A stretch of 64,000 bases of DNA from Alphaproteobacteria bacterium (lineage in GTDB: Bacteria > Pseudomonadota > Alphaproteobacteria > SHVV01), in NCBI GenBank assembly GCA_965261735.1, contig OZ253470.1:4608001-4672000 (forward strand). The letters run 5' to 3'. The position numbers and the translations under genes are program-made. This document shows, piece by piece, positions 17,866 to 52,273 of the stretch. Numbering within the stretch: position 1 is the stretch's first letter; every line of letters begins with the position of its first letter. The notes beneath the pieces were generated by a model. It had not been told where the DNA came from, ran no database searches, and saw nothing but the letters and a program-made list of their open reading frames with translations.

Positions 17866-19292
17866 GAATCCTCCGTCTGTGGGCGCGCCGGCATCTCGAC
17901 GAGTAGGCTGCCCCATTCGTCCATCGTCACGCGGGCGCCCGGCCCGACCACGAGCGTCGATTCGCGCTCCTCGACGATCGCCGGGCCGGCAAACTTATCG
18001 CCAGGTTTGAGCGCATAGCGATCGTAAACCGGCGACGCCACAAATCGAAGTGCTTCTGGGAAGTAGACGGCTCGTTCGGCCTCGCGTGAGTGACCCGAAC
18101 CGGGCTGCGCGTGCCAGCGCAAATCGACCTTGGGCGCCGGCGCGCTCACCGTCACCCGCCAGGTCAAGGCGTCGACCGGGATGCGCGTAACAACGCGCTG
18201 GAAGAGCTCCTGATAGCGACGGTCGAACGCCTCGCGAAACCGCACTTCGTCGCCCGGCCCGAACCGACCTGGCGGCACCGGTACGGCAATGTCGTGCATC
18301 TGCCCGACATACTGCATGTCGGCGTTGCGCGTGACGGTGGCGGCGCCCTGGGCTACGCCTGCGTCGCGCAGGAACGCGTGGCCCGACGCCTCGAGCGAGT
18401 CGAGCAACTCGTTGAGCGGCTCCCATTCGAGGCGATCGAGACGGGCGACGTACGTCTACGCCGCCTCCGCTGCCACCGGCGCAACCAGGAAGCCCACGGC
18501 CGAGGCGACGCCGGCGTCGGCCGGCGAGATGATCGCGGGCGAGCGTAGGATGCGGGCAATGCCGTAAGCATGCACCGGCCCGGCGCCGCCGAAGCACAGC
18601 AGCGAGTGGCGCGCCGGATCGCGTCCGTGCTCCATCGCATGGATGCGGAAGGCGCTCGCCATCTCCTCGTTGGCGACGCGGTGGATGCCCCACGCCGCCT
18701 GCACGAGGCTGAGGCCCAAAGGGCGCGCGACCTTCTCGTCGATCGCACGCGCGGCCGCGTCACCGTCGAGCTTCATCTCGCCGCCCAGGAAGTAGTCGGG
18801 ATTGAGGTAGCCGAGCACGAGATCGGCGTCCGTTACGGTCGGGTCGAGGCCGCCGCGCCCGTAACAGGCCGGTCCTGGATCCGAGCCGGCACTCCGCGGC
18901 CCGACCTGAAGCTGGCCCAGCCGGTCGATCGAGGCGATCGAGCCACCGCCGGTGCCGATCTCCTCGATCTCGACGCACGGCACTCGCACCGGAAAGCCGC
19001 TGCCGCGCTTGAAGCGCTCGACGCGCGCGACCTCGAACTCGCGGGCAACCGGCACCTGCCCGCCCTGAATGAGCGAGGCCTTTGCCGTGGTACCGCCCAT
19101 GTCGAAAGTGATCAGATCCTCGCGCCCCGTGAGGCCGGCGTAGTGGGCACCGAGCATCACGCCCCCGGCCGGTCCCGACTCGATGAGCCGCGTCGGAAAG
19201 CGCCGCGCCCCCTCGGCGTTGGTCAGCAGCCCGCTCGACAGCATAAGGTGGAACGCGCCGCCCAGGCCGAGGTCGCGCAGGCGGCGTTCTAG

Positions 19293-20939
19293 GAGCGTGC
19301 GCCGCAGAAAGGTCCGCGCGGCAAAGTTGATAGCGGACGGGTTGTGGGTGGATTTGCGCAGGGGGAAGTATGATCCGATACGCCAGTTGCGTGTGGGAAC
19401 TCCCGATGCCGACCACGTTTCGTGCCTACCAGCCGGACCAACCCTTGCTTTTGCCGCCGGACTTGCAGGAGTGGGTTTCCCCAGGGCACCTGGCTCATCA
19501 CGTCAGCGATGTGGTCGATGCACTGGACTTGACGGCGTTCTATGCGCCCTACGAGGGGGACGGTCGACGCAACGCCCCCTACGAGCCGTCGATGATGGTC
19601 AAGGTGCTGATCTATGCCTACGCGACGGGCACATTCTCCTCGCGCGCGGTGGCGAGGAAGCTGGAGGAGGATGTAGCGTTTAGGATGCTCGCGGCGGGCA
19701 ACTTCCCGCAACATCGCACGGTATGTGAGTTCCGACGCCGACATCTGGCGGAGTTCAGCGAGCTGTTTGTGGGGGTGGTGCAGGTGGCGCGCGAGATGGG
19801 ACTGGCGCGGTTCGGCAAGCTCTCGGTCGACGGGACGAAGGTGCGAGCGAACGCGAGCAAGCGCAAGGCGATGAGCTATGAGCGGATGGGCAAAGAGGCG
19901 GCTCGCTTGCAGGCGGAGATCGAGGCGCTGCTGACGACGGCGGGGATGGTGGACGCCGAAGAAGACGAGCGTTGGGGCGAGGATTTCCGGGGCGACGAGT
20001 TGCCCGAGGAGTTGCAACGCAGGGAGAAGCGCCTGGCGGCGATCCAGGCAGCCAAAGCGCGTTTGGAGGCGGCGCAACGCGGGCGCGACGATGAGCGCGG
20101 GCGCGAGCCGGGGCAGGACCGCAATCCCCGGGGCGGGCGGCCTTACAAGCGGGCCTACGGCGAGCCCGAGCCGAAGGCGCAGAGCAATTTCACCGATCCC
20201 GAGAGCCAGATCATGAAGACCAGCAGCGAGGGGTTCCAGCAGTGCTACAACGCGCAGATGGCGGTCGATGGGGAGCACCAGATCATCGTCGCGACTCAGG
20301 TGGGGCCACAGGCCAGCGACCAGGGTCAGCTGGTGGGGATGCTCGACGAGATCAACGAGACGTTTGGGGTCGAGCCTGCGGTGGTACTGGCCGATGCGGG
20401 CTACTGCAACGAGCCGGATCTGTTGGAGCTGGAAGATCGCGGCATCGACGCGCACGTAGCGCTGGGGCGTGAAGGCAAGTCCCAGGTGGCGGTCGACCCG
20501 GCCCGGCTCCCTGCCACGCACCGCATGGGTGAGAAACTGGCGAGCCCCGCGGGCAAAGCCCGGTACGCGCAACGCAAGTGGCTCTCGGAGGCGCCGAACG
20601 GGTGGATCAAGGAGGTGCTCGGATTCCGACGATTCAGCCTGCGAGGCTTGGCGAAGGTGCGCGGCGAGTGGGACCTCGTGTGCTTGGCGTTGAACATCAA
20701 GCGGATGGGGACGGTGGCCACGTGCTGAGGCAGGTGCTGGCCTGCCAACGCACTTGATCCGGGGCGCGCAGTGCCCATCGACCGCGTATGAAACGCGAAT
20801 CTCTTCCCTTCCGGCCTTCCGGTCTGGGATTTCCATCCCAGAGTCGGGCGGGCCAGATATCCACACTCGGGCCAAAATCCCACCTCTCCGGCGGCCGCGC
20901 GCCAATCGCCCAACATCAAAACTTCTACGGCGCACGCTC
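19293..20939 (+). mobile_element. IS1182-family insertion sequence
   Basis: IRs GAGCGTGCGCCGCAGAA / TTCTACGGCGCACGCTC; CTAG duplicated at 19289-19292 and 20940-20943. Confidence 0.9.
19406..20728 (+). CDS. IS1182-family transposase
   Basis: LLPPDLQEWV..HLA, YAYATGTFSSR, VDGTKVRANAS, NFTDPES, LADAGY, FRRFSLRG. Confidence 0.88.
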   Translation: MPTTFRAYQPDQPLLLPPDLQEWVSPGHLAHHVSDVVDALDLTAFYAPYEGDGRRNAPYEPSMMVKVLIYAYATGTFSSRAVARKLEEDVAFRMLAAGNFPQHRTVCEFRRRHLAEFSELFVGVVQVAREMGLARFGKLSVDGTKVRANASKRKAMSYERMGKEAARLQAEIEALLTTAGMVDAEEDERWGEDFRGDELPEELQRREKRLAAIQAAKARLEAAQRGRDDERGREPGQDRNPRGGRPYKRAYGEPEPKAQSNFTDPESQIMKTSSEGFQQCYNAQMAVDGEHQIIVATQVGPQASDQGQLVGMLDEINETFGVEPAVVLADAGYCNEPDLLELEDRGIDAHVALGREGKSQVAVDPARLPATHRMGEKLASPAGKARYAQRKWLSEAPNGWIKEVLGFRRFSLRGLAKVRGEWDLVCLALNIKRMGTVATC

Positions 20940-21667
20940 CTAGGCGCTCGAGATAGCGCTCGACGACCGGCTGCAGGTAAGCGTTGATCACCGTCGTCGA
21001 GGTGCGCTCGTACTCGCGGATCTCGGGCGCGACCTCCGACGATAGGCTGACCGCGACCTCAGGCGCGGCCGCGGCGATGTAGTCGGCGGTTGCGCGCTCG
21101 TGGGCTGGGCTCTTGTAGGCGTGGAGGTAAGCGACCGCGATGCTCTCGACGCCGGCGGCGCGGAGGCTCGTGACCTCATCGGCAAGCTGGCCGAGGTCGA
21201 GCGGCGTCACGACATGGCCATCTCGATCGGTACGCTCATTGACGCCGCGCCGGAGCGGCCGCGCCACCAGCGGCTCGGGCAGCTCGAGCTGCAGATTGTA
21301 GTGGTCGTAGCGAGACTCGCGCCCGATCGCGAGAACGTCGATGAACCCCGCCGTCGTGAGGAGCCCGGTACGCGCCCCCTTGCGCTCGATCACCGCATTG
21401 GTGGCGAGCGTCGTGCCATGGAAGACGACACCGACGTCCTCGGCCCGGATTCCAGCCTCGCCGAGCAAGCGGCGGATGCCCTCGACCACCGCGTCGCCGG
21501 GATCGCCCGGCGTCGTCAGGAACCTTGCCCACGCGGAGCGTGCCGGTCGCCGTGTCCTCGAGGACGAAGTCCGTGAAGGTGCCGCCGATGTCGACGCCCA
21601 AGCGATACTGCACGCCTGCCTCACATCCCAACATAAGACTCGAGTGACCCAAACGTTTCGGGCCGCG

Positions 21668-22787: not shown

Positions 22788-23801
22788 CTAGCTCGCCTCT
22801 TCGGCGAGCAGCGAAGCGACGATGCGGCGCGCCGAGAGGGGGCCCGCGTCGACCGGGATATTGACCATATCCGGGTCTCCACCAAGCCCGTCGATCATCG
22901 CTTGCTGCCCTTCGAGGATCGCGATGTCCTGACTGAGCAGATGAGTATTGGCCTCCTGCAATTGCTCGCTGACTTCTTCGTCGTGCCCGAAGTTTCGCGG
23001 ACTCGACCAGAAGTGGTAGGTGAAGCGCTCAGTCGCCGGCGTGATGCCGTTCAAGAAGTGATACATCAGCGCGTTTGTCTCTTCACCCTCGGCCGATCCG
23101 GTCGGCGCCGACCACGACAGGATGTTGATGTGCGAGGGTGGCATCCATTCAACCAGCTGCTTGCGGTCCATGTTGCCGTCCCAACCCATCCAGCGCTGGT
23201 GGTACAGCGGCGGCGGCACGTTCTTGAAGCGGCGCACGATACTGACGGTCTCGCCCTGGACGTCCGTCTTCAGCGGGACTTCGGCGGTATTCACAGACGG
23301 GCCGATCGTCTGCTGGTGGACGTAGTTGATATGTGACAAGTCGAGCAAGTTGTCGACCAGAAGCTGGTAGTGGCATCGGATATCGAGCCGTCCCTCCGAA
23401 GCGCTCCAGCCGGGGTCGTCGTTCCAATGAAAATTCGGAATCTTGGCTTCGTCGGCGCGCTCGCGATCGCCCATCCAAATCCACAGCCAACGCCACTTCT
23501 CGACCAGCGGATAGGTCGTCAGGTGGCACTGCGCTGGAATGTTTACCTGTCCCGGTAAAACCGTGCACGTCCCGGTGGCATCGAAACGAAGTCCGTGGTA
23601 GCCGCACTGCACCTCGTCCCCGATCAGCCTCCCCTGTGCGAGCGGCAAGCTACGATGGGGGCAGTTGCCCTGAAGCGCCACCGCTTGACCGGCCTCGGTC
23701 CGGTACAGAAGGACCGGTTTGTCCAAGATCCACCGGCCGAGCAATTCGCGCCCGACCTCGCTCGATAGCGCCGCGACGTACCAGTGATTTTTCAAGAACA
23801 T
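22788..23801 (-). CDS. Rieske non-heme iron oxygenase alpha subunit, VanA/TsaM-like
   Basis: FLKNHWYVAA, CPHR...CGYHG, DNLLDLSHINYVH, QDIAILEGQQ. Confidence 0.88.
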   Translation of the reverse strand: MFLKNHWYVAALSSEVGRELLGRWILDKPVLLYRTEAGQAVALQGNCPHRSLPLAQGRLIGDEVQCGYHGLRFDATGTCTVLPGQVNIPAQCHLTTYPLVEKWRWLWIWMGDRERADEAKIPNFHWNDDPGWSASEGRLDIRCHYQLLVDNLLDLSHINYVHQQTIGPSVNTAEVPLKTDVQGETVSIVRRFKNVPPPLYHQRWMGWDGNMDRKQLVEWMPPSHINILSWSAPTGSAEGEETNALMYHFLNGITPATERFTYHFWSSPRNFGHDEEVSEQLQEANTHLLSQDIAILEGQQAMIDGLGGDPDMVNIPVDAGPLSARRIVASLLAEEAS

Positions 23802-25929: not shown

Positions 25930-26970
25930 ATGGAGTACGCGGTTTTCTTCAACATCCAGTGCCGCGAGGAGCAGGACTACAACGCGCTCTATCGGAATCG
26001 GCTCGAGGAGTGCGTGTGGGCGGAGAAGCTCGGTTTCGGCGCTTTGTTCGTTGCCGAGCATGCGTTTTGCGAGCACGGCCGGCCCTCACCCGCCGTGACG
26101 CTGGCTCACGTTGCCGCGCGGACCAGCCGTATTCGGCTGGGAACCGCGGTGTGCGTACTGCCCTGGCACAATCCGCTGGAGGTCGCACAGGATTACGCGA
26201 CGCTCGATATCATGTCGGAGGGTCGGCTCGACTTCGGCGTCGGCAGGGGGGCCTTCAAGGTCGAGTTCGACGGCTACGGCTTGGACTGGGAGGACTCACG
26301 GCCGCGCTACGAGGAGGCCCTGGAAATCATCCTCAAGGCGTGGACGGGAGAGCCGTTCTCCTACGACGGCCAGTTCTTCAAAATACCCGAGGTGGCGGTC
26401 AATCCGGTGCCGGTTCAACGCCCACACCCGCCGCTATGGTCGCCGACGCTTACCGCCGAGACGATGGCCCTCGCCGTCGCCCAGGGCATCACGCCCATGG
26501 TCGGCGCCTCGTTCAGTCCGCTCGAACTCGTCAAGAAGAATTTCGGCCACCTGAAGGACGCCATGACGGCCTCGAGCCGCAACGACATGCGTCGCGTCGG
26601 GCACCCGCTTATCTTCCTCAGTGACACCGTTGACAAGGCCCGGGAGGAGGCGAGAGAGAGCGTCGAGTGGCTCGTCCAGGACTTCGCCAACATGTTCACG
26701 CTTCCCGAGGGAGAGGCATATCCGGCAAAGTTCGCGTTCCAGGAGAAGATGGCCGCGCGCATCCGCTCGCTCACGTTCGAGAAGATCGTGAGCGAGGATC
26801 TCATGTGGATCGGAGATGTGGCCTACATCACGGACCGTCTGCGCTGGCTGCGCGACGACTGCGGGGCGAACTACTTCCTCTCGAACATGAGCCCAGGCGG
26901 CCTCGAGCACGAGAAGGTCATGAAGTCGATGGAGCTGTTGTCGACGAAAGTGATGCCGCAGCTGTCCTAG
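25930..26970 (+). CDS. Luciferase-like (LLM) flavin-dependent monooxygenase
   Basis: AEKLGF..AEH, TSRIRLGTAV, GRLDFGVGRG, PVQRPHPP; its stop TAG lies in the IS630 target CTAG. Confidence 0.88.
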   Translation: MEYAVFFNIQCREEQDYNALYRNRLEECVWAEKLGFGALFVAEHAFCEHGRPSPAVTLAHVAARTSRIRLGTAVCVLPWHNPLEVAQDYATLDIMSEGRLDFGVGRGAFKVEFDGYGLDWEDSRPRYEEALEIILKAWTGEPFSYDGQFFKIPEVAVNPVPVQRPHPPLWSPTLTAETMALAVAQGITPMVGASFSPLELVKKNFGHLKDAMTASSRNDMRRVGHPLIFLSDTVDKAREEARESVEWLVQDFANMFTLPEGEAYPAKFAFQEKMAARIRSLTFEKIVSEDLMWIGDVAYITDRLRWLRDDCGANYFLSNMSPGGLEHEKVMKSMELLSTKVMPQLS

Positions 26971-28117
26971 TGGATTGATCGGAACGAAAGAGTCCGATTT
27001 GAGATTCCGTATTGTGCGGTGTCATGCGAGTCTGTGCTATGCGCACCGGCATCCATTTTACTGTCACGTCTGGCGACCGTCAGCGATTGCAAGCTATCGT
27101 CGCGGACCCGAAGAGCTCGCAGAAACATGTCTGGCGGGCGCGGATCATCCTGAAGAGCGACGAGGGGCTCGGGAACTCGTCGATCATGGCCGAGACCGGC
27201 AAGTCCAAGACCTGTGTCTGGCGCTGGCAGGAGCGGTTCATGCACGAGGGTGTCAACGGCTTGCTTCGCGACAGGTCCCGTCCGCCTGGCAAAGCGCCGA
27301 TCCCGCCGGAGCGCGTCGCCGAGATCGTCCGCCTGACCCAGCAAGCGCCGCCGCACGAGGCGACCCACTGGACGCTGCGCGCGATGGCGAAGGTTGCTGG
27401 CGTCGCGGCGTCGACGGTCCAAGCGATCTGGAAGGCCCATGGCCTCAGCCCGCACCGCTGGCGGCACTTCAAGCTCTCCAATGATCCCGCCTTCGCCGAG
27501 AAGCTCACAGATATCGTCGGCTTGTATGTCGATCCGCCGGCCCATGCCGTGGTGCTGTCGGTTGATGAGAAATCACAGATCCAGGCGCTCGACCGCACCC
27601 AACCCGGCTTGCCGATGAAGAAGGGCCGCGCCGGTACGATGACCTATGATTACAAACGGCATGGCACGACGACGCTGTTCGCCGCGCTCAACGTGCTGGA
27701 CGGTACGGTCATCGCACAGAACATGCAGCGCCACCGCCATCAGGAGTTCATCCGCTTCCTCAACCGCATCGAGCGCGAGGTGCCGACGGACAAGGCCGTC
27801 CACGTCATCCTCGACAACTACGCCGCGCACAAGAAGGACAAGGTCCGCGCCTGGCTCGCCCGCCATCCACGCTGGACCTTCCACTTCACGCCAACCTCGT
27901 GCTCGTGGCTCAATGCCGTCGAGGGCTTCTTCGCCAAACTAACGCGGCGCAGGCTCAAATACGGCGTCTTCCAATCCGTCGTCGACCTTCAGGACGCCAT
28001 CAACCGATTTGTCCGCGAATACAATGACGCAAACCCAAAACCCTTCATCTGGAAAGCCGACCCCGATCATATCATCGCCGCACGAAACAGAGGGTTCCAA
28101 ACGTTGGAATCAATCCA
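26971..28117 (+). mobile_element. IS630-family element, copy 1 (transposase 27039-28121)
   Basis: Ends TGGATTGAT.../...ATCAATCCA flanked by CTAG on both sides; SVDEK, YKRHGTT, ILDNY, SWLNAVE; 1147 bp. Confidence 0.93.
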
Positions 28118-28145
28118 CTAGCGGCTCGCTAGGGCCGGTCGGCCT

Positions 28146-30407
28146 TCAGTAGTTGGAGCCGTTCAGCGCCTCCCACACGAGCCGGTCGAAGTGGTGGGTG
28201 CCGTGCTCGCTCACCGATGAGCGGACCGCATCGACCATGAGCCGTCCCTGGCTATAGCCGCGTGCCTTGAGCCCGGCCGCCTGTCCCTCCATCGCCGCCA
28301 CGTCCTGCGGCCACACCACGTCCCGATACTGGTTCATATGCGCCAGGTCGTGCTCGGTCGGCGGATCGTTGAGGCAATAGTTGTAGATCAGCCGATAGGC
28401 GTGCTCGGGCCCATCGGGGACGGCGCGCAGGACCTTGAAGTTGCTTGGTCCCTGGTGGGTGACGAACACCAGGTTCGGCCAAAGGTAATAGACGTTGATG
28501 TCCATGACCGTCGCCGGGCCCACGTCGTAGGGCAGCTTGTGGCGCATGGTCTCGATGACCTTGCGATTGCCGTAGGATGTGTGCTTCTGCCAGTAGTCAT
28601 ACTCCTGCCCCACGAAGCGGCGCTCGATGAACTCGTCGGCGCCGACCTTGTTTTGCGGGTGGATGACGGGGCAGTGGTAGCACTCCAGGCCATCGAGGAT
28701 CGATTTCCAGTTGGCGCGTACCGCCATCGTGTCGAGCCGCGCGAGCTTGAGCGACTCGTAGTCCGGCACTGAGGCGAGAATGTCGTCTTCGAGCCCGGGG
28801 ACGAGGTCGGCGAGCGGCGTTGCCTCCGGATCGAGGTTGACGAACACCATCCTGGCCAAGATTTCGACCTGGATTTCCGCGAGGCTGAAATCCTCCAAGC
28901 TGAAGCCGGCCACGTTCTCGGCGTTGCCGGCCGCCCTGAGCGCTCCCGTAGCGTCGTACGACCAGGCGTGGAAGGGGCAGGTGAAGATGGTCTTGTTGCC
29001 CTTACCCTCGGTGAGGATGTGCCCGCGGTGCATGCAAACGTTGTAGAAGGCTTGCCTGTCCGGTTTACACCCACACCCACTAGGGCTAGAATGGGCGCAA
29101 CCCGGATATAGGGGAGCGCGCCATGGATGTTCTCGACCGCGCCGATCTCCCATTCCCGCATTCGCTACCCGAGTTCCAGCGACTTTTCCCCGATGATGCG
29201 GCCTGCGCCGCCTACCTGGAGAAAGCCCGCTGGGGAGACGGCTTTGCCTGCCCGCACTGCGGCACGGCGGGAGAGCCGTTCCACTTTGAAAACCGCCCTG
29301 GCGTCCTGCGCTGCCGCAAGTGCCGCCAGAACACCGGGCTGACGGTGGGAACAGTGATGGAGCGTAGCCACACTCCGCTGAACGTCTGGTTCTGGGCCGC
29401 TTATCTGGTCGCCAGTCAGACGCCCGGCATGTCCGCCGTGCAGTTTCAGCGGCAACTTGGTCTTTCGCGCTACGAGACGGCCTTTCAAATTCTCCACAAG
29501 CTCCGCTCGGGCATGGTGCGGCCCAACCAAGACAGGATCGGTGGACAGCCCAAGAACCATGTTGAGGTGGACGAAACCTGGGTTGGCGGGCGAACGCGTG
29601 GGGAAGGCCGTGGTGTTCACCACAAGGTTCCCGTCTCCTGTGCCATCGAAGTGCGTCATCGAAAGCCGGGCACCAAGCTCGACAACCGGAAAGACGGACG
29701 CTATGCCGGACGCGTTCGGCTCGCCGTCGTGCTCGACCGTAGCGCCGAGTCGCTCTGTGGGTTCGTCGAGAGCACCGTCGCGCCGCGATCGCTGATCGTT
29801 ACTGACGATTGGAGCGGCTATGCTGGCCTCGGTAAGCGCGGCTATGAGCACTTCGCTGTTGCCGAGTGTGGTGATCCAGAGGTTGCCGAGCAATACCTGC
29901 CGATCATCCATCTGGTTTTCGCCAACCTGAAGACGTGGCTGATCGGTATCCACCACGGCGTTAGCCACCAGCACCTACAAGCCTACCTCAACGAGTTCAC
30001 CTTCCGCTTCAACAGGCGGTTCTACCCGTTCAACGCCTTCCGCTCATTGCTCGGCATCGCGGGCGACACCTCTGCTCCAACCTATGCCGAGCTTTACTCG
30101 GGAGAGTGGCGGCACCCTACATGTAGCGGTCATGGGTGTTAACCGGATAGGAAAGGTAGAAGGCTCGAACCCGCCCGTCCTTGCCGTGCACCACGAAGAC
30201 CTTCTGGTCGAGGATTTCGGCGGTGAAGTAATCGCCCGGTGAGGCCAGGTCGCTGACGTGGCCGACGAACTGCCAGGTCCTGAACCAGATCGCCTCTTTC
30301 TCGCACTCGTAGATCTCCGGGTCCCAATAGAGGTAGCTCGGCAACGTGCCCGAGAGCTCAGCTTCGGGCCGGAACGCGGTCTTCGAAAGCGTCTCCGTCG
30401 GGGTCAT
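28146..30407 (-). pseudogene. CntA/YeaW-like Rieske oxygenase alpha subunit (paralogue 1), interrupted by IS1595
   Basis: Removing the IS and one GTAGAAGG copy restores ...GRVRAFYNVCMHRGH...CPFHAW...DGLECYHCPVIHP...WPQD...SEHGTHHF. Confidence 0.9.
29051..30155 (+). mobile_element. IS1595-family element A, copy 1 (transposase 29123-30142)
   Basis: IRs CTTGCCTGTCCGGTTTACACCCA / TGGGTGTTAACCGGATAGGAAAG; 8-bp duplication GTAGAAGG at 29043-29050 and 30156-30163; CPHC..CRKC, EVDET, TDDW, YLNEFTFRFNRR. Confidence 0.92.
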
Positions 30408-30420
30408 GTTCGGCTTTCCC

Positions 30421-31575
30421 TTACGCGGCCTCGTACTCGGGGCCGTTCAACGCCAGCCAAACCAGATTGTCGAAATGGTGCGTGCCATGCTCGCTGCGCC
30501 ACGAGCGCTCAGCATCGACCATCAAGCGGCCGCCGCCATAGCCGCGCGAGCGTACGCCGGCAGCCTGCAACTCCATAGCGCGTTTGTCCTGCGGAAAGAC
30601 GATGTCGCAATAGTTGTCGATGTTGGCACGGTCGTAAGCGCTCGGCGGGTTCTGCAGGCAGAAGCTGCGAATGTGCCTAACGGACGTCTCAGGTCCCACG
30701 GTCGTGGCGTGCAAGATCTTGAGATTGGTGGGTCCCTGGTGCGCCACGAAGATGAGATTAGGCCACAGGAACCAGATGTTGACGTCCTTGAGCGTCGCCG
30801 GACCGAAATCGTAGGGCAGCTTGTCCCGGTTCTTTTCGATTACCTCGTAATTGCCGACCACGACGTCGAGCATCCAGTACTCGTGCTCAGTGGTTTCGAA
30901 GGAGTTCGTGAGGTAGGAATCCTCCTTCCCCATCGCCTGCGGATGGATGACGGGGCAGTGGTAGCACTCGAGGCCGTCGAGGATGAACTTCCAGTTGGCG
31001 GCGACGTCGAAGGTCGTCGTTTCGACGTACACAAGGTCGTCGAAGCCCGGGATTCTCTCGCGCATGTTGTCGAGCATTCCGTCCGCCATATCCGCGAGCG
31101 GCCGCGCCTGCGCATCAAGGTTGACGAACACCATCCAACCCAGCGTCTCGACCCGGATTTCCGCGAGATGGAAATCCTCGTGCTGAAAGCCGGCGACGTT
31201 TTCGGCGTTGCCCGCTGCCTTCAAGGCGCCGGTCGTGTCGTAGGACCAGGCGTGGAAGGGGCAAGTGAAGATCCTCTTGTTGCCGCAGGCCTCGGCCAGG
31301 ATGTGCCCGCGGTGCATGCACACGTTGTAGAAGGCGCGCAAGCTCCCATCCTTGGCGCGGACGACCAGGATCGGCTGATCGATGAGCGTCGTCGTAATGA
31401 AGTCGCCGGGATTTTGCAGGTCGCCAAGATGGCCCGCATACTGCCAGGTCTTGAACCAGATTTGTTCATTCTCGCGCCGCCATATCTCGGGGTCGAAGTA
31501 GTAATGCGCGGGCAGCGTCCCCGAAACGTCGGCGTTGGCGGTAAAGTGGGCAATGGGATTGGCGCGCGCTGGCAT
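30421..31575 (-). CDS. CntA/YeaW-like Rieske oxygenase alpha subunit (paralogue 2)
   Basis: CMHRG...CPFHAW, NWKFILDGLECYHCPVIHP, WPN, FPQD, GRLMVD..SEHGTHHF. Confidence 0.88.
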   Translation of the reverse strand: MPARANPIAHFTANADVSGTLPAHYYFDPEIWRRENEQIWFKTWQYAGHLGDLQNPGDFITTTLIDQPILVVRAKDGSLRAFYNVCMHRGHILAEACGNKRIFTCPFHAWSYDTTGALKAAGNAENVAGFQHEDFHLAEIRVETLGWMVFVNLDAQARPLADMADGMLDNMRERIPGFDDLVYVETTTFDVAANWKFILDGLECYHCPVIHPQAMGKEDSYLTNSFETTEHEYWMLDVVVGNYEVIEKNRDKLPYDFGPATLKDVNIWFLWPNLIFVAHQGPTNLKILHATTVGPETSVRHIRSFCLQNPPSAYDRANIDNYCDIVFPQDKRAMELQAAGVRSRGYGGGRLMVDAERSWRSEHGTHHFDNLVWLALNGPEYEAA

Positions 31576-31723: not shown

Positions 31724-31990
31724 ATGCACGACATCGCCATTCGTCAGGAGATTGTCGACCGGGTGATCGCCAAGCGCAGCCGGTTGCACCTTCGAAAGTC
31801 TCGATCCCAAGAAGACCGCGTTCGTCGTGGTCGACATGCAGAACGCGTTCCGCGCGCCGGGCGCACCGGTCGAGGTGCCGGCCTCGCGCGGCGTCGTACC
31901 GGCGATCAACAGGCTTGCAGCCGAGGTCCGCCAGACGAATGGCACCGTCATCTGGATGGTGGGCGTGGTCAGGGACAGCGCCGGCATGGA
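31724..31990 (+). pseudogene. Isochorismatase/cysteine hydrolase 5' remnant
   Basis: MHDIAIRQEIVDRV... shifts frame into LDPKKTAFVVVDMQNAF...VPAINRLAAEVR..GTVIW, then breaks off. Confidence 0.6.
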
Positions 31991-31994
31991 CAAC

Positions 31995-32411
31995 CGGGGA
32001 GCTACCTCCGGGTCGTGCTCGGCGACCCGGAGAAGGTTACGTCGGCTCGCCGCCGCACGCCTATCTGGTGCACGTGCCTGAGGGTAAGAACGACCCCCGG
32101 ACCTCCACCGGATGCACCCTCGACGAGCTCCCCGGCGACAAGGAAGCCGTCCCCTGGGGTGAATACCCCTTGATGGGCGAGGATATTCTTATGTTGGCCT
32201 GAGCGGGGGCGGCGGCTACGGCGACCCGCTCGACCGCGATCCCGAGGCCGTGCCGCGCGACGTGAGCGGGAATCTCACGTCCGTGCACGATGCGAGGGAG
32301 CTCTACGGCTTCGTGTTTACCGAAGCCAACGGCGCCGTCGATGCCGCGGCGACGCAGGCGCGCCGCTCATCGATCCGTGCGGCGCGCACGGACGCATTGG
32401 CGGCGGCGTAG
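31995..32411 (+). pseudogene. Hydantoinase B 3' remnant
   Basis: SGGGGYGDPLDRDPEAVPRDV..ARELYG ending TAG 32409-32411; frameshifted, no start. Confidence 0.6.
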
Positions 32412-32468: not shown

Positions 32469-33167
32469 CTAGCCGGCGGCGGCGGTTTTCTCCTCGAAGA
32501 GCGTGCCGGCATAGAACTCGCGCCGCTTCAAGCTGGCAACGAATTCATCCTTGAAGTTCCCCGGCACCGATCCGACGATACACTCGTTCACGAGCAACGC
32601 ATCCGACCAGGCCTGGACAAGCGGGAGCGACTCCATCAGGCCGCTCGAGAGCCGCTCTTCAACGAATGCGAACCGCTGTAAGAACGGAGCGTATGCGGCA
32701 TCCACCAGGCACAGGTTGGGACCATTGAAGTAGGGTCCGTCGTTGCCGCGCTCCTGGGCGATGGCCTGCTCGAGCTTGCTCAACCGCTGCGAGGCGAGCT
32801 CGAGCTTTTCGCTCACCGCCTCCCTCGACTTCGTGTAGTAGACCCCGCTGAGTCCGCTCGCGAAATCCGGCACGTAGTCGGTCCACGCCCGATTGCGGGC
32901 GCGCCTGATGGGATCGTCCGGATGGAGCCTCGGCTCGACCATCTCGTCGAGGTACTCGGCGATCGCGCTCGACTCGAACAGGGGCTGCTCGTCGACCACG
33001 AGGACGGGCACCTTCCCGTGCGGCGAGATTTCGAGGAACCAACCGGGTTTGTCGGTGAGGTCGACGTAGGTGACCTCGAATTCAACCTGCTTGGCGCGCA
33101 TTACAATCACGGCGCGCTGAACCCAGGGTCACAAAAGGTGGCTGATCAAGTGGTACTTCTTCACCAT
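32469..33167 (-). CDS. Glutathione S-transferase, probable selenoprotein (UGA at codon 13)
   Basis: ATG 33167: MVKKYHLISHLL-TGA-PWVQRAVIVM, in frame with ORF 32469..33110 (ISPHGKVPVL, LFESSAIAEYLDE); hairpin follows the UGA. GST identity is firm; Sec is inferred. Confidence 0.8.
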
Positions 33168-33254
33168 GGAGCGTCTTCCCCGCGGATTTGTCGGTAACCA
33201 TAGGGCTAGATCCCACTGCCGTCAAAGGCACCCGGGCCAGGCGGCAAGCTCGAC

Positions 33255-33390
33255 CGTAAGGGCGGCGTAGTGACGACCGGGCGCCGACGAGCACCTTCGC
33301 GTGCCAGATCGTGTTGTGGAGGGGCCGGCGCCCAACCGCGTACGCGACCGCGCCCATCGTATAGGTAATCCCGCCGACCAGGAGACGGTG
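33255..33390 (-). pseudogene. Hemolysin III/PAQR-like membrane protein 3' remnant
   Basis: LLVGGITYTMGAVAY...HNTIWH, with HYAAL in a shifted frame. Confidence 0.4.
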
Positions 33391-33444
33391 AGCGCCGGAG
33401 CCCCTACTGCCGCCACCACTGCCGGAAAAATAGGGGAGGAAAGC

Positions 33445-33816
33445 ATGAATGCGACACTGGAGAGCCCGACGGAGGTCGTCGAGGCCTACGTCACGGCGGT
33501 GCGGACGTCCGATCTCGATCTGCTGCGCTCGCTCTGCGCCGACGACATGGAGTTGGTCAGCCTGCGCATGGCGGGTATCGAGAGCGGGCGGATGAAAGGC
33601 GCCGACGCGATTGTCGCCTTCTACGGCCAGTTTCTCGGAGAGTGGGGCGGCGCCGATCCGCATCCTGGACCGCTCCTGGTTTCCGGCAATACCGTCGCGG
33701 TCGAAATAGAGGCTCATCACGCCGACAGGATCGACGAGGTCGCGGACTTCTTCACCATCGAGAACGGCAAGATCACCCGGCTTGCCGTGTACTCCGGCCC
33801 GAGTCGACCGAAGTGA
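33445..33816 (+). CDS. SnoaL/NTF2-like protein
   Basis: 123 aa; VVEAYV..DLDLLRSLCADD, GADAIVAFY, FTIENGKITRL; GGAGG RBS. Confidence 0.8.
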   Translation: MNATLESPTEVVEAYVTAVRTSDLDLLRSLCADDMELVSLRMAGIESGRMKGADAIVAFYGQFLGEWGGADPHPGPLLVSGNTVAVEIEAHHADRIDEVADFFTIENGKITRLAVYSGPSRPK

Positions 33817-33839
33817 TAGGCCGCCCGACGACGCGCTAG

Positions 33840-34986
33840 TGGATTGATCGGAACGAAAGAGTCCGATTTGAGATTCCGTATTGTGCGGTGTCATGCGAGT
33901 CTGTGCTATGCGCACCGGCATCCATTTTACTGTCACGTCTGGCGACCGTCAGCGATTGCAAGCTATCGTCGCGGACCCGAAGAGCTCGCAGAAACATGTC
34001 TGGCGGGCGCGGATCATCCTGAAGAGCGACGAGGGGCTCGGGAACTCGTCGATCATGGCCGAGACCGGCAAGTCCAAGACCTGTGTCTGGCGCTGGCAGG
34101 AGCGGTTCATGCACGAGGGTGTCAACGGCTTGCTTCGCGACAGGTCCCGTCCGCCTGGCAAAGCGCCGATCCCGCCGGAGCGCGTCGCCGAGATCGTCCG
34201 CCTGACCCAGCAAGCGCCGCCGCACGAGGCGACCCACTGGACGCTGCGCGCGATGGCGAAGGTTGCTGGCGTCGCGGCGTCGACGGTCCAAGCGATCTGG
34301 AAGGCCCATGGCCTCAGCCCGCACCGCTGGCGGCACTTCAAGCTCTCCAATGATCCCGCCTTCGCCGAGAAGCTCACAGATATCGTCGGCTTGTATGTCG
34401 ATCCGCCGGCCCATGCCGTGGTGCTGTCGGTTGATGAGAAATCACAGATCCAGGCGCTCGACCGCACCCAACCCGGCTTGCCGATGAAGAAGGGCCGCGC
34501 CGGTACGATGACCTATGATTACAAACGGCATGGCACGACGACGCTGTTCGCCGCGCTCAACGTGCTGGACGGTACGGTCATCGCACAGAACATGCAGCGC
34601 CACCGCCATCAGGAGTTCATCCGCTTCCTCAACCGCATCGAGCGCGAGGTGCCGACGGACAAGGCCGTCCACGTCATCCTCGACAACTACGCCGCGCACA
34701 AGAAGGACAAGGTCCGCGCCTGGCTCGCCCGCCATCCACGCTGGACCTTCCACTTCACGCCAACCTCGTGCTCGTGGCTCAATGCCGTCGAGGGCTTCTT
34801 CGCCAAACTAACGCGGCGCAGGCTCAAATACGGCGTCTTCCAATCCGTCGTCGACCTTCAGGACGCCATCAACCGATTTGTCCGCGAATACAATGACGCA
34901 AACCCAAAACCCTTCATCTGGAAAGCCGACCCCGATCATATCATCGCCGCACGAAACAGAGGGTTCCAAACGTTGGAATCAATCCA
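33840..34986 (+). mobile_element. IS630-family element, copy 2 (transposase 33908-34990)
   Basis: Same length and protein sequence as copy 1; CTAG at 33836-33839 and 34987-34990. Confidence 0.93.
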
Positions 34987-35005
34987 CTAGGTCGCGCCCA
35001 GGCTC

Positions 35006-36428: not shown

Positions 36429-37571
36429 ATGGCCGGCAACGTGACGCGGCTGCAACACAAGAACAGCTTCCACCCCGAGGCCGAACGCTCCGCCACGCTG
36501 CCGGCGCACTACTACTACGACCCGGACATCGCCCGGCGCGAAAAGGAAGAGGTGTTCTACAAGACGTGGCAGTTCGTCGGCTATCGACACGACCTCGCCG
36601 AGGCCGGGAGTTATCTCACGGCCACCATCGTCGACCAGCCGATCTTCGTCGTGCGCGCCAAGGACGGGAAGTTGCGCGCCTTCTACAACGTGTGCATGCA
36701 CCGCGGCCATATCCTGCTCGAGGGCAAGGGCAACGTGCGCATGATCACGTGCCCGTTCCACGCCTGGACCTATGACCTCGAGGGCAACCTCAAGGCCGCC
36801 GGCAACTCGGAGAACGTGGCGGGCTTCGATCACGGCGATTTCTGCCTGCCCGAGATCCAGGTCGAGGAGTTCATCCACATGGTGTTCGTGAACCTCGATG
36901 CGGACGCCCCGGCGCTCGCCAGCCAAGTGGAAGGCATGGAGGCCGAGGTACGCGAGACGGTGCACAATCTCGATGACCTGACGTTTGCCCGGCGCGACCG
37001 TTACGACATCAAGTGCAACTGGAAATTCATTTTCGACGGTCTCGAATGCTACCACTGCCCGCACATCCATCCCGAGGCGACGAACTCGCTCGACTGGGAG
37101 CTTCGCAAGTCGTGGGAGTACGGGATCTGGCAGCGCCACAGCAATCCGATCCGCGGCGACACGGGCGACAATCCCGACCGTCCTTACCGGGTCGAATCGA
37201 GCGATCCGCAGCGCGGCTCCAACATCTGGTATCTGTGGCCCAACCTGATTCTCATTTCGCACTGGGGCCTCTCCAACTTCAAGACGATGCACATTCTTCC
37301 GGCGGGCCCGGAGACGGCCGTCCAGAACGTCGACAGCTTCTGTCTCGCCAACCCGCCGACGGAGAGCGACATCGCCGGCATGAACCGTTTCCGCGACGTG
37401 GCCCAAGCCCAGGACATCCACGCGATGGAGCGGCAGCAGCTCGGCGTCCACGCCCGTGGCTACCAGCAGGGTCGCTTGATGGTCGACGCGGAGCACTCGT
37501 GGCGCAGCGAGCACGCGGTGCACCACTACAACAAGCTGCTGTGGGAGGCGCTCAACGGCCCGACCTATTAG
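36429..37571 (+). CDS. CntA/YeaW-like Rieske oxygenase alpha subunit (paralogue 3)
   Basis: CMHRG...CPFHAW, NWKFIFDGLECYHCPHIHP, AQD, QGRLMVD..SEHAVHHY. Confidence 0.88.
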   Translation: MAGNVTRLQHKNSFHPEAERSATLPAHYYYDPDIARREKEEVFYKTWQFVGYRHDLAEAGSYLTATIVDQPIFVVRAKDGKLRAFYNVCMHRGHILLEGKGNVRMITCPFHAWTYDLEGNLKAAGNSENVAGFDHGDFCLPEIQVEEFIHMVFVNLDADAPALASQVEGMEAEVRETVHNLDDLTFARRDRYDIKCNWKFIFDGLECYHCPHIHPEATNSLDWELRKSWEYGIWQRHSNPIRGDTGDNPDRPYRVESSDPQRGSNIWYLWPNLILISHWGLSNFKTMHILPAGPETAVQNVDSFCLANPPTESDIAGMNRFRDVAQAQDIHAMERQQLGVHARGYQQGRLMVDAEHSWRSEHAVHHYNKLLWEALNGPTY

Positions 37572-38920: not shown

Positions 38921-41900
38921 GGGTGCGAGTCTCGCATGGCAGTGATGTCTGCGATCGTGTCCCGCGGAGTGGTGTAAGAGCGTTGCGCTCTACGCGGCTC
39001 CCGGCGGATAGGGCCGGGACGTTCAGGCTGCCACGGTGGGCAGCGTGATGGGGACACCATCGCTCAGCGGAGCGATGGATTCCAGCGTCATGTATCTCCT
39101 TGAGACGGCCCACTCGTCGTTCTGCTCGAGAAGGATGGCGCCGACGAGCCGTGTGATGGCGGCTTCGTTGGGAAAGATACCGACGACGTTGGTGCGACGC
39201 TTGACCTCGGCATGGAGCCGTTCGATCGGGTTTGTGGAGTGCAATTTCTGGCGGTGCTCCCTGGAGAAGCTCATGTAGGCGAGGACGTCGTGCTCGGCTT
39301 CGTCCATGAGAACTGCCAGCTTGGGCACCTTGGGCCTGAGCTGGTCGGCGACCTGGCGCCACTGGACCTTCGCGCTGTCGGCGTCCTCCTGGGCGAAGGC
39401 GGTGGCGACGAAGGCGGAGACGACGCGCCGGCCCTGGCGGCCGGCATGGGCCAGCAGGTTGCGGGCGAAGTGCACGCGGCAGCGCTGCCATGTGGCGCCG
39501 AGGATCCGGGTCGCGGCGGCCTTCAGGCCCTTGTGGTCGTCGGAGATCACCAGCTTCACGCCGCGCAGCCCGCGCCGGGCCAGCGAGCGCAGGAACTCGG
39601 TCCAGAAGGTCTCGGCCTCCGACGCGCCGATCGCCACGCCCAGGACCTCGCGGCGGCCTTGGTCGTTGACGGCCACAGCCACGGTCACCGCGACCGAGAC
39701 GATGCGTCCGGTCTGGCGCACCTTCACGTAGGTGGCGTCGAGCCACAGATAGGGCCAGTCGCCCTCCAGCGGTCGATCGAGGAAGCCGGTGACCTTATCG
39801 TCGATCTCGCCGCACAGCCTGGAGACCTGGCTCTTGGAGGCGCCCGACATCCCCATCGCCTGAACCAGATCGTCGACCGAGCGGGTCGACACCCCCTGGA
39901 TGTAGGCCTCCTGGATCACCGCAGCCAGCGCCTTCTCGGGATCTTCAGCTCGACCGTGCCGGCCCGCGTCTCCCAGGACCGGTCGCGGTAGCCGTTGCGA
40001 TGGGTGATACGATCCGCCGAGCGCTCGCCGTGCCCGGCGCCGGTCAGGCCCTCAACCTCCAGTGCCATCAGCCGCTCGGCCGTGAAGCCGATCATCTCGC
40101 AAAGCAGATCGGCATCGGAGCTCTTCTCCAAAAGCGCGCGCAGGGTCATCATGTCCTGGGTCATCGTGGTTCTCCTTCGGGTCAGGTTGGTTTGCACTAG
40201 CCCAACCCTAAACCGGAACCGCGATGGCCTCCGCTGTGGATAGCCGGCTTGCCTACGCCAGACTCTCGGCGGTCGCTACGGCAAGCCGCCTACCCACAGC
40301 TACCAGAGGCTCCAACAACTCCTACACCACGTCCTGGGACACGACCATGTCTGCGGCTTGGTTCGTTGAGTTCAGGCAGCTGATTGCCATGGCTGCTGCA
40401 CGTGGACTGATGTTGTCGTTGGCCGGTGTGTCGGTTGCGCTGATCAGGGCCTTCCATGCGCGCTCGAAGCGGCCGGATTTGATCAGGGCGCGGAAGGTCA
40501 GAACAGCCTGTCCGCCGACGATCCGCCAGCGCATGCCGGAGCGCTTCATGCGCTGTGTCACCAGGGATCTTGTTGGCAGCCTCGACCACGCCTGAGCCGA
40601 TGGCGATGCCCTCTTCCTTCAGGGCGTGGTAGCGCATGCGATGGCGATGCTTGCGGAAGAAGGCGAGTTCCCGCTCGGTCTCGGCCCGGTCCGGCGCAGC
40701 GGCGGCATCGCGAAGGTGGCGCAGCGCCCGGATCACCTTGGCGACGCCACGGGGATCGTGACGGATGGATCTCGCGGCACTTCTCGAACCAGCCGGGCGC
40801 CACGGCATGGTCGGACGCGGTTTGCAGATGTTCGCAAGCATGCCAGAAGTCGATCACCTCGGTTTCGGGCGACAGGGTCTCCAGGAAGGTCCAGTTGTCG
40901 GCGGCGCCATCGGCGATAGCGACGATCCCGATCTCGGGGCGTGCTCGCCTGATGTGTGCGACTTCGCTTGCAAGCTGCGCCTTCAGCGTGAGCTTGCCGC
41001 TCTCCGGCATGGGGCCGAGATAGAGGGTCTTCAGGCGCTTGCCCTCGGCGTCGTGGAAGGAGACCGTGCCGCAGGCGGCCTCGCGCCAGGAGGCCTTGGC
41101 GCGACCGTCCTCGCCGGGTCTCAGCGGCACCATGACGCCGTCGAGGGAGACCGAGGCGGTGGTCGCGTCCTGCGGTATGCCCTCGGCCTCACGGATGCTG
41201 CCCAGCGTCTCCGGGCCGAGGCTCTCCCAGCATTCGTGCATGCTCAGGGTCAGGCGCTCACCGACGGCGTCATGGCGCCGGTCTTCGCAAAGAACGCCGC
41301 CGCTTCCCGGGCCGTGCAGCGACCCATCATCAGCAGACCGAGCTCGGCCGCCGGCCGCGTCAGGTAATCGTCGACGAGGCCCAGGCTCTCGTCGACCGGC
41401 ACCGGCGATGCCCCGCTCGCGCCGCTGCGGTAACGCGCTCGCCGGTAGGTCACCGGACCGAGCGAGGTCATGATCGTCTTCGGCGTCACCGCGACCCGGA
41501 ACCAGCTCTGCCCGTCCCGCTCGATCCGGGAAGCGCCATCGTCCCGGTTCTCGATGACGGCGCCCATGACATCGCGAGCGAACTCGTTCGTGGCCTCACG
41601 CACCCGCAACTCGACCTCCTCGGGCGCCTCGGGGCGCGGCTCGGAACGAAGCTCCTCGCGACACAGTGCGAGCACCCGGGCGACCGCCTCGACGACCCGA
41701 GGAGGCAGGCCGGAAAGATCGATGGACGAAGGCGCCGGAGGCGGGGATACTGCCATGGGAATGCTCCCGATGTTGGGTTTCGAGACACGGCATCGTACCG
41801 CTTCTGGCGGTGCGGAGCGTTCCCACCTTCCCCTGCTCGACCCTGCCGTCGTGACAAAATCCTGCCTTGGAGCGGCCCATTGTCACGAATAGCCGTTTTC

Positions 41901-43210: not shown

Positions 43211-44065
43211 TTAGAAGCGGGCCACCAGATCGCCAAACATCGGTCCAGGCCGCTTCCGGCGGTTATAGCGATACTCAAACTCCTTCACATACTTCTGAAG
43301 GTGCTTCCCGGACACATGAACGTGCGTCCCGCGAATCGACAGCTTCAACCGCGCCCAAAAGCCCTCAATCGAGTTCACATGGCTAGAGCCGCGCGCGTAC
43401 TGGCCCGCGCTGTGGTTGACGGTCTGGTGCGTATACCCAATCGTCGCCAATCCGCTGTAAGACTTGAGTTCGTCAGTATGAACGGTGCTACCCGGCTCGA
43501 CGTTCTCGGAGATAAACGCCTGCAAAGTCCGCTTTCGAACGTTCGGGACAACGTTCGCCATCACGTCGCCGTCGCGCTCCAGCATCCCGAACACCACGGT
43601 CTTGTTCGGAGCGCCGCGACCGCGCTTGCCACCGGTCGTACGGCCACCAACATAGGTCTCGTCGGCTTCAATATCGCCGTCCAGCGGCCACTCTCCGTCA
43701 GTATTAGCCATGTGTTTGCGGATCAAATGGCCCATGCGCCAAGCCGTGGGATAGGACACGTCAAGTTGGCGCTCCAGTTCCTTCGCGGGGACGCCGTGGC
43801 GCGATGTGGTGAACAGGAATATGGCGTAGAACCACTTGTGAAGCGGCAGATGCGTGCGGTGCATGAATGTGCCTGCGCACGGATAAATGTGGTGTTTGCA
43901 GTGCTGGCAGAGATACGCGCGATCACGTGCCAGGCGGTAGAACTTCCCATGCGCCCCGCACTTCGGGCAGTCAATCTCGGTGCCGCCGTAACGCTTCACC
44001 ATTATGTGGTGAAGGCACGCCTCGTCATCGGGAAACTGCTGCTGAAAATCGTAGAAAGTCGTCAT
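43211..44065 (-). CDS. IS1595-family transposase
   Basis: FPDDEAC, CPKC..CQHC, EADETYVGG, HTDE, HVNSIEGFW, EFEYRYNRR. Confidence 0.92.
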   Translation of the reverse strand: MTTFYDFQQQFPDDEACLHHIMVKRYGGTEIDCPKCGAHGKFYRLARDRAYLCQHCKHHIYPCAGTFMHRTHLPLHKWFYAIFLFTTSRHGVPAKELERQLDVSYPTAWRMGHLIRKHMANTDGEWPLDGDIEADETYVGGRTTGGKRGRGAPNKTVVFGMLERDGDVMANVVPNVRKRTLQAFISENVEPGSTVHTDELKSYSGLATIGYTHQTVNHSAGQYARGSSHVNSIEGFWARLKLSIRGTHVHVSGKHLQKYVKEFEYRYNRRKRPGPMFGDLVARF

Positions 44066-44179
44066 TATTTCCTCCTGTCCCCTGCATATGGGGATTGAGA
44101 TGTGACGTGTCAAGTTGATAATCGCGTTCTATTATCTAATGATGACGTCGTTCATGAGTACATGACCCAATGCCGTCCG

Positions 44180-46387: not shown

Positions 46388-47435
46388 GCCGCCTCCTTTG
46401 CCCGCCGTGCAGGTCCAGTGCCGATCCACATGTTAGCCGCGCCGATGCCCGCGTGTCTTTCTTGCGCGGTATGGGCGCGGTCGGCTGGGAGCGAGAGGCG
46501 CGCTGTAACCCCACGAGGAACAACCGATGTCCCAAGCGGTGGCCAGATCCAAGCATCCCTTCCGCCCTGAGCCTGAATATTCGGGCACGCTACCGAGCTA
46601 CTACTACTGGGACCCGGAAATCTACGAGCGCGAAAAGGAGGAGATCTGGTTCAAGACCTGGCAGCTCGTCGGCCACACCATCGATCTCACGGAGCCGGGC
46701 GACTACTTCACCGCCGACATCCTCGATCAGAAGATTCTCGTGTGCCTCGGCAAGGACCGGAAGATACGCGCCTTCTACAATGTGTGCATGCACCGCGGCC
46801 ACGTGCTGGCCGAAGGGAAGGGATGCAAGAACATCTTCACGTGTCCCTTCCACGCCTGGTCCTATGACCTGACTGGCGCGCTCAAGGCCGCCGGCAACGC
46901 CGAGAACGTGGCCGGCTTCCGTTACGAGGAGTTCGGGCTGGCGGCGGTGCAGGTCGAGGTCCTGGCCAACATGGTGTTCGTCAACCTCGACCCGAATGCC
47001 GGCTCCCTCGCGGACCTGGTCCCGGGGCTCGAGGACGACATCCGCGCCTCGGTGCCCGACTACGATGACCTCAAGCTCGCCCGCATCGACGTGCTCGAGG
47101 TCCGCGCCAATTGGAAGTCAATCCTCGACGGGCTCGAGTGCTACCACTGCCCGATTATCCATCCCCACGTGTCGACCGGCAAGGAGGGCTATATCGAGCG
47201 CCGTTTCGTGGGCGACGAGTACGGCTACTGGCAGAAGCACACGTCCTACGGCAACCGCGAGGTCATCGAGAAGCACAAGGAGCGACTACCGCACGATCTC
47301 GGGACGGCCCAGGTCATCGACGTCCCGATCTACTACCTGTGGCCCAACCTCATCCTGATCGCGCACCAGGGGCCGAGCAACTTCAAGATCCTGCGCGCGG
47401 TGCCCGACGGGCCCGAGCACACCTATCGCATCAAC

Positions 47436-52072: not shown

Positions 52073-52273
52073 AGCGCTCTCCTCTCGACAGTCTGTGGAG
52101 CGATTCACCGGCCTGGCCTCAAGGTGAGGTGCCCGCGGGCGAGGCGGGGTACAAACCGCTAGTATCCACCCTTATCGCTACCCGGCCCTAGTTGGCAACG
52201 GCTATTTCCGCGCGCTATAGATCAGTTGTGACCTGTCGCCCGCGCGCGGGCGAGCTGCCCTTGGACAAAGCAA

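Follow-up and report, generated by a model that had tools for sequence, protein, structure and literature searches.

Background

GST-like proteins entered the catalogue of selenoproteins with the Sargasso Sea study (Zhang, Fomenko & Gladyshev 2005; PMC1088965), which presents them as a new selenoprotein family with 4 sequences in COG0625. The GOS study that followed (2008; PMC2398784) gives 12 GST selenoprotein sequences and 1,036 Cys homologues. Two reviews keep the family under the name 'GST-like' in their lists: that of 2022 (PMC9312934) with PPR62222.1 as the example, and that of 2026 (PMC13188914) with MEK9676863.1 and the domain PF13409. According to the latter review, nearly all families of this type were found by bioinformatics, and their functions are largely uncharacterised. 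Until now, the listing of GST-like selenoproteins has drawn on a small number of metagenomic reads.

Here, we describe a gene in a 64-kb stretch of DNA (hereafter, the window, which means the whole stretch that was analysed) that is a new member of this selenoprotein family, catalogued since 2005 and known from marine metagenomes. As in the published GST-like selenoproteins, the predicted product has a single selenocysteine (Sec), belongs to the GST superfamily and falls under COG0625/PF13409, the latter domain being the best match here. Also shared with the published family are the pairing of Sec and Cys forms, a bSECIS downstream of the Sec codon, an origin from marine or environmental Proteobacteria and recognition by bioinformatics only. 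Membership is assigned by the domain and the one Sec, the published text stating no Sec position. The published counts (4 and 12) are small; in the present comparison, which covers the 80 species-level genomes with the closest loci, the Sec form occurs in 76. From the comparisons presented below, we consider it very probable that the gene is intact and built to be decoded through Sec, i.e., that it encodes a homologue of the Cys-type GSTs and carries a bSECIS inside its ORF.

The reading frame and the predicted protein

The full selenoprotein ORF (32469..33167, minus strand) extends from an ATG at 33167-33165 to a TAG at 32471-32469 and encodes a 232-aa GST-like protein whose residue 13 is a putative Sec; the assignment is based on translation, Pfam, Cys homologues and an AlphaFold2 (AF2) model. 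In the minus-strand translation, the codons preceding the UGA read MVKKYHLISHLL, and PWVQR follows directly. The UGA itself, codon 13 of the frame (33129..33131, minus strand), is predicted to be read as Sec from its alignment with the catalytic Cys of related proteins. Apart from this one internal TGA, the 232-residue frame contains zero further stops and zero frameshifts, in agreement with an earlier note on this DNA, which had described a UGA at codon 13 followed by PWVQR in a gene with no other lesion. The coding pattern of the ORF is normal (GC3 of 0.85). A sigma-70-like promoter match, TTGACG-17-TATGGT (33197..33225, minus strand; a consensus match only), lies ~ 30 nt 5' of the ATG; shuffles lead one to expect 0.2 such sites, and one was observed.

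The table-11 ORF list contains only a shorter form of the GST gene, a truncated ORF of 213 aa (32469..33110, minus strand) with a GTG start that falls inside the hairpin considered below. This form is devoid of strand beta1 and of the catalytic residue. Among the Pfam-supported ORFs of the window, TGA is also the most frequent regular stop codon (26 of 52), which means that no global code reassignment has taken place. A compositional scan of the window for TGA read-through genes returned four candidates, the Sec-GST among them; the other three were not retained, two of them having no Pfam match and one having an Oxidored_FMN match that was situated well downstream of the TGA.

The Pfam search with the 232-aa protein gave GST_N_2 as the best match (PF13409, 8.6e-19), together with GST_N_3, GST_N and GST_C_2, while the NCBIfam search of the protein gave no equivalog at its cut-off. 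The AF2 model was computed from an alignment of 31 sequences; its mean pLDDT is 90.9, and it shows the order beta-alpha-beta-alpha-beta-beta-alpha, then helices. In Foldseek, the model groups with GSTs of the tau and omega classes, at TM values of 0.76-0.79 and identities of 23-29%. The Pfam, AF2 and Foldseek results agree on the architecture of the GST superfamily, a thioredoxin-like N-domain combined with an all-helical C-domain. The fold is the same as in the Cys-type GSTs (TM of ~ 0.76-0.78 to GSTO1).

By sequence, the closest solved relative is the thiol-dependent reductase 1 of Leishmania (TDR1, 4ags; 4.5e-25), and further PDB matches comprise omega-class GSTs (GSTO1), tau GSTs, DHARs and lambda GSTs, with E-values from 4.5e-25 to 1e-15 over all of these matches. 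U13-P-W aligns with the C-P-F of both TDR1 domains, in line with the placement of the UGA at the catalytic Cys position in the earlier note. In the AF2 model, strand beta1 comprises residues 5-9 and helix alpha1 residues 14-25. Because beta1 ends at residue 9 and alpha1 starts at residue 14, residue 13 is located at the alpha1 N-cap, and the model places it at the catalytic position of thioredoxin-fold enzymes. Thus, as in Cys-type GSTs, the predicted nucleophile is found in a C/U-P-F/W-x-x-R motif at the N-terminus of alpha1; unlike in Cys-type GSTs (GSTO1, TDR1, DHAR, lambda), it would be Sec instead of cysteine. Unlike the omega GSTs, the protein of the window has a short N-terminus with no omega-type extension. 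V53 P54 and E65 S66 are invariant; we take these V-P and E-S motifs to be the glutathione-site motifs.

The UGA codon in homologous genes

A protein search revealed 6184 relatives, of which the best 120, with identities of 61-100%, were analysed. Among these best matches, 86 of 120 are annotated as proteins of 205-241 aa that start just after the Cys position. A further 33 are full length and read C-P-W-V-Q-R, and in the remaining one this site is occupied by W. The full-length Cys homologues (231-232 aa) cover 99-100% of the 232-aa protein. The expectation that standard callers would truncate the gene is therefore borne out by the 86 of 120 best database homologues that begin just past the Sec codon, and the same error thus affects the annotation of all of them: from our reading, the true product of the present gene would be 232 aa with Sec13 and not the 213-aa fragment.

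For the DNA level, one genome per species was scanned, and 423 relatives were confirmed, the best 80 of which were kept. These loci belong mostly to Alphaproteobacteria MAGs, with some from Gammaproteobacteria, and the nearest relative with DNA is 73% identical to the protein of the window. At codon 13, the best 80 of the 423 loci have TGA in 76 cases, TGT in 2 and TGC in 2. The presence of TGA at this codon in homologues had been proposed earlier as a check, and the genome scan clearly shows it. The 76 loci and the copy of the window together make up the 77 TGA (Sec) forms referred to below.

Could the real gene nevertheless be the truncated ORF of 210-213 aa, starting at GTG 33110 or ATG 33101, with an upstream frame that is open by chance? 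This is what the table-11 ORF list returns and how 86 of the 120 homologues are annotated. However, across the 77 TGA forms the 12 codons 5' of the TGA are conserved as protein while their synonymous sites vary, with a codon entropy of 0.98-1.56 at, e.g., Y5, H6, L7, S10 and T12. Such a combination of protein conservation and synonymous variation indicates that the upstream codons are translated in this frame. The full-length Cys forms include the upstream codons as well, and a truncated product would be left without beta1 and the catalytic residue of its thioredoxin-like domain. Moreover, the annotated starts of the 86 truncated homologues vary (V16, V20, M23), as is expected of caller artefacts. 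We therefore give the truncated-gene explanation hardly any credence.

The orthologues thus retain the UGA, with coding conservation on both sides of it, and Sec and Cys alternate at the same position, Cys codons being present in 4 of the 80 loci and C in 33 of the 120 proteins. In a quick ML tree of the 121 proteins, the protein of the window falls in a clade of 19 (SH-aLRT 95) that contains only truncated, presumed-Sec forms. The Cys forms occupy at least 3-4 separate places in this quick tree, and the family may accordingly have undergone at least 3-4 Sec/Cys switches. The database also holds a truncated protein (P0002; a cluster of 8 sequences from 2 contigs) that is 100% identical to the copy of the window.

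The single homologue with W is P0086, which represents a cluster of 50 and reads T-W-P-W-V-Q-R; its branch, with a length of 0.5, falls within a clade of presumed Sec forms. Its W would be explained by a TGA-to-TGG change or by translation with a table in which TGA is Trp. This protein bears on another explanation, according to which a tRNA other than tRNA-Sec, e.g., a near-cognate one for Trp or Cys, reads the UGA and the hairpin serves only to stimulate read-through. The W of P0086 speaks for such an explanation, and Sec insertion is itself deduced from sequence. Against this, the alternates verified in DNA are Cys codons only (4/80), which is the signature of a Sec/Cys pair; the position is that of the nucleophile of Cys-type GSTs, where Trp would be inactive; and the spacing and the loop G of the hairpin fit the bSECIS model. 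The long branch (0.5) of P0086 also allows that it is an artefact of table-4 translation. Read-through by an ordinary tRNA is thus very improbable, and decoding as Sec is the explanation we prefer.

The hairpin downstream of the UGA

A bSECIS-like hairpin was identified by folding at 33094..33117 (minus strand). As in the fdhF-type SECIS of E. coli, the hairpin lies directly 3' of the UGA and inside the coding sequence; unlike in general plan, in sequence the two are unrelated. It consists of a 6-bp GCGCGC/GCGCGC stem, a bulged C, two upper pairs (G-U and U-A, giving 8 bp in total) and the 7-nt loop GAUUGUA, with a return arm of AU-GCGCGC, and its MFE is -10.5 kcal/mol. From the UGA, it is 11 nt to the base of the hairpin and 20 nt to the first G of the loop, so that folding agrees with the distances that had been read from the letters in the earlier note. 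In fdhF, an 11-nt spacing from UGA to stem is required, as Liu et al. reportedly found in 1998. The ribosome occludes ~ 11 nt of mRNA in its tunnel, as stated in PMC4513850, a value that is matched by the 11 nt separating the stem from the UGA here.

The Fig. 2 legend of PMC13188914 defines a bSECIS by four criteria: a loop of 3-9 nt on a stem of 4-16 bp, a G at loop position 1 or 2, a spacing of 16-37 nt and an MFE <= -7.5 kcal/mol. The hairpin of the window agrees with 4/4 of these (8 bp, GAUUGUA, 20 nt, -10.5 kcal/mol). It resembles the bSECIS consensus in its 20-nt spacing, its MFE and a small apical loop that opens with G; unlike the consensus, which prefers G/U, it has A after the loop G. 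When the MFE structures of the family are compared, 62 of 77 hairpins agree with all four criteria, while 12 depart from the loop-G rule only, 2 from the loop/stem size only and 1 from two rules. Many members of the family differ from the consensus by an 8-nt loop in the MFE structure or by a G outside the first two positions.

An important question is how much such a hairpin proves. The single-sequence fold of the 69-nt stretch is not stronger than chance in comparison with shuffles (z = 0.52). In the window, which has 65% GC, 201 of 1533 TGA trinucleotides (13%) are followed at the same geometry by a structure that passes the four bSECIS criteria, and 81 of 1533 (5.3%) pass at <= -10.5 kcal/mol. 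Because 13% of the TGAs in the window pass the same criteria, the hairpin alone is weak evidence for Sec, and the comparison with homologues decides.

In this comparison (74 distinct sequences), the 6-bp stem is the RNAalifold consensus and is paired in 99.5% of cells, the sole variation being a change from G-C to G-U at one pair. A second register (4 bp, a 3' bulge and 3 bp) was paired in 91.1% of cells versus 99.5% for the simple 6-bp stem and was rejected, the two registers not being rigorously separable because neither has covariation. Compensatory double changes were found at 0 pairs of the hairpin among the 74 distinct sequences, and for this reason the RNA-level support comes from frozen synonymous sites and not from covariation.

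The frozen segment is a 14-mer, CAGCGCGCCGTGAT (33106..33119, minus strand), which was delimited by codon entropy and identity counts and comprises the 5' arm and the 5' half of the loop. It spans codons Q17 R18 A19 V20 plus the AT of I21. The 14-mer is identical in 76 of the 77 Sec forms, and the remaining one has a single change; its mean pairwise identity is 99.8%, versus 72-73% in the flanking stretches. Codon entropy is zero at Q17 (CAG), R18 (CGC), A19 (GCC) and V20 (GTG) in 77/77 Sec forms, while 0/79 of the other degenerate columns that are conserved further along the gene have a codon entropy below 0.24. These frozen synonymous sites demonstrate selection on the hairpin at the RNA level. 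The copy of the window matches the family at 14/14 positions, and the 14-mer occurs once in the window. All four Cys forms with DNA have 2-4 mismatches each to the 14-mer, and their hairpins are weak in three cases (-2.5 to -6.5 kcal/mol) and of -10.4 kcal/mol in one (n = 4 DNA sequences).

The proposal of a 232-aa selenoprotein is consequently supported by TGA in 76/80 loci, the 14-mer in 76/77 Sec forms and a stem paired in 99.5% of cells. The opposite situation, named at the outset as one that would speak against it, namely Cys in all close homologues and no conserved hairpin, does not apply, given the TGA in 76/80 and the 14-mer in 76/77.

The element also limits the protein. Residue 19 (33113-33111, GCC, in the stem) is Ala in 77/77 Sec forms and Ser in 13 of the 33 Cys proteins. 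The sequence comparison thus offers a clear case of a SECIS element that constrains protein sequence by dictating the peptide Q-R-A-V. In our opinion, the most interesting aspect of the locus is this invariance of the SECIS core sequence across distant hosts, which fixes Q-R-A-V. The segment CAGCGCGCCGUGAU, covering the 5' arm and the early loop, is frozen at all synonymous sites in 76 of 77 genes from Alpha- and Gammaproteobacteria, and the proteins of these genes are 62-73% identical to the protein of the window. There may thus be more to the hairpin than a generic bSECIS: a distinct, sequence-specific SECIS class tied to a particular SelB lineage, or a self-contained Sec cassette that has spread horizontally, is conceivable, and we would put it forward only as a speculative and rather unlikely extension. 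In a bolder variant of this idea, the copy of the window may have been carried into its genome on an IS-rich catabolic island.

One locus of the family differs in its 3' arm. L034:4450-4506 has kept the TGA and the frozen 14-mer, the 3' arm is divergent (CTTCGTAC), and 2/6 stem pairs are broken; its hairpin may use a different pairing, or the copy may be decaying.

Proposed mechanism and significance

According to the model we favour, the catalytic Cys of a cytosolic Cys-type GST (omega/DHAR/lambda/TDR1-like) has been replaced by U13 in U-P-W-V-Q-R. The UGA at 33131-33129 would be recoded in translation, with the downstream hairpin acting as a bacterial SECIS. This element would recruit SelB-GTP-Sec-tRNA(Sec) to the ribosome, and Sec would be inserted in place of termination by release factor 2. 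Binding of SelB to the hairpin and a working Sec system in the genome are presumed in this model. The product would probably carry out glutathione-dependent thiol transfer or reduction, of the deglutathionylation, dehydroascorbate or disulfide type, and catalysis could proceed via a selenenyl-sulfide intermediate with glutathione.

A conserved operon partner was sought across the 80 loci and none was found, the largest real neighbour cluster comprising 17 of 80, so that the neighbouring genes do not hint at a substrate. Two larger neighbour clusters proved to be overlapping-frame artefacts of the GST gene itself. For 14 neighbour clusters a representative was inspected; it either lacked a Pfam match or was an unrelated gene of housekeeping or metabolism, and in no case did it belong to the Sec machinery.

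The finding opens no new kind of biology. The GST family is nevertheless a clean natural system in which Sec and Cys catalysis can be compared in one scaffold, and it is also suited to the study of the limits that a SECIS inside an ORF sets on protein sequence.

Integrity of the copy and its genomic surroundings

These results raise a further question: is the copy of the window still decoded, or is it stranded, i.e., a decaying Sec-GST whose genome has lost the Sec machinery or whose host never had it, so that it is effectively a pseudogene? No selA, selB, selC or selD was found within the 64-kb window, and neither Rfam, used with its gathering thresholds, nor ARAGORN gave any match there, tRNA-Sec included. 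In Alphaproteobacteria, selC has been reported to be nested in selB (cited in PMC13188914). ARAGORN on the flanks of the 80 loci detected 10 tRNAs, none of them tRNA-Sec. The surroundings of the gene are decayed: isochorismatase and Rieske genes are present as fragments, a hydantoinase A gene is split, and IS copies are numerous. Furthermore, two substitutions, S10H and T12L, stand beside the Sec codon. All of this is compatible with a stranded gene.

The gene itself points in the other direction. It has no lesion besides the TGA that is typical of the family, its SECIS core is identical at 14/14 positions, and its GC3 of 0.85 reflects a normal coding pattern. In the 84 columns with a conservation of >= 95%, the copy shows 3 deviations, a number inside the family range of 0-4. 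The 100%-identical truncated protein P0002 is present independently in the database. The nearest IS630 starts at ~ 33835, ~ 670 nt upstream of the GST gene and beyond a divergent SnoaL-like gene (33301-33816), so another gene lies between the two. We therefore regard a stranded gene as improbable, though less so than read-through by an ordinary tRNA, and return to the interpretation of an intact gene decoded through Sec. Two of the three deviations, S10H and T12L, directly precede the Sec codon (33138-33132) and replace residues that are S in 97% and T in 99% of the Sec forms; H10 and L12 could represent lineage-specific variation of the active site or an early relaxation of constraint.

The same evidence bears on a caveat of the earlier note, that one TGY>TGA substitution in a decaying region would suffice to produce the UGA. 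The decaying region is real. The lesion is very unlikely for the family and unlikely for this copy, the gene being otherwise intact, with 3/84 deviations (range 0-4) and the exact 14-mer kept.

Some further features of the window were recorded. IS630 copies are situated at 26966-28121, 33835-34990 and 47470-48625; comparison of 300-nt stretches from them gave 100% identity, and the Pfam scores of their 369-aa transposase ORFs are nearly the same. The three identical copies point to recent transposition. When the 9.6 kb surrounding the GST gene were searched against plasmids, only IS630 copies were matched. The other transposases of the window are of the IS1595, IS3, IS256 and IS5 types. Two IS1595 copies (29086-30020 and 48622-49481) share 100%-identical 300-nt segments, and a third, more divergent one is located at 43211-44113. 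The IS256/Mutator transposase is split into ORFs 39023-39919 and 39916-40197.

The hydantoinase/oxoprolinase A gene lies in pieces at 17862-21624 (Hydant_A_N at 20401-21624, Hydantoinase_A at 18456-19244 and Hydant_A_C at 17862-18407), with an IS5-type DDE transposase ORF (19370-20728, plus strand) inserted between them. Directly downstream of the GST gene is an isochorismatase fragment (31827-32078, plus strand) that covers profile positions 5-64 of 175, and a Rieske fragment is found nearby (30120-30407, minus strand), a 96-aa piece with a partial domain.

As judged from its gene content, the window looks like an IS-rich aromatic-catabolism island. Six Rieske-type oxygenase genes, comprising five ring-hydroxylating alpha-subunit paralogues and one VanA-like gene, are located at 22788-23801, 28146-29153, 30421-31575, 36429-37571, 46527-47468 and 50918-52108, and the stretches 36458-36757 and 46550-46849 of two of them are 71% identical. 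Amidohydrolase, glyoxalase-fold dioxygenase and alpha/beta-hydrolase genes are also present in the window.
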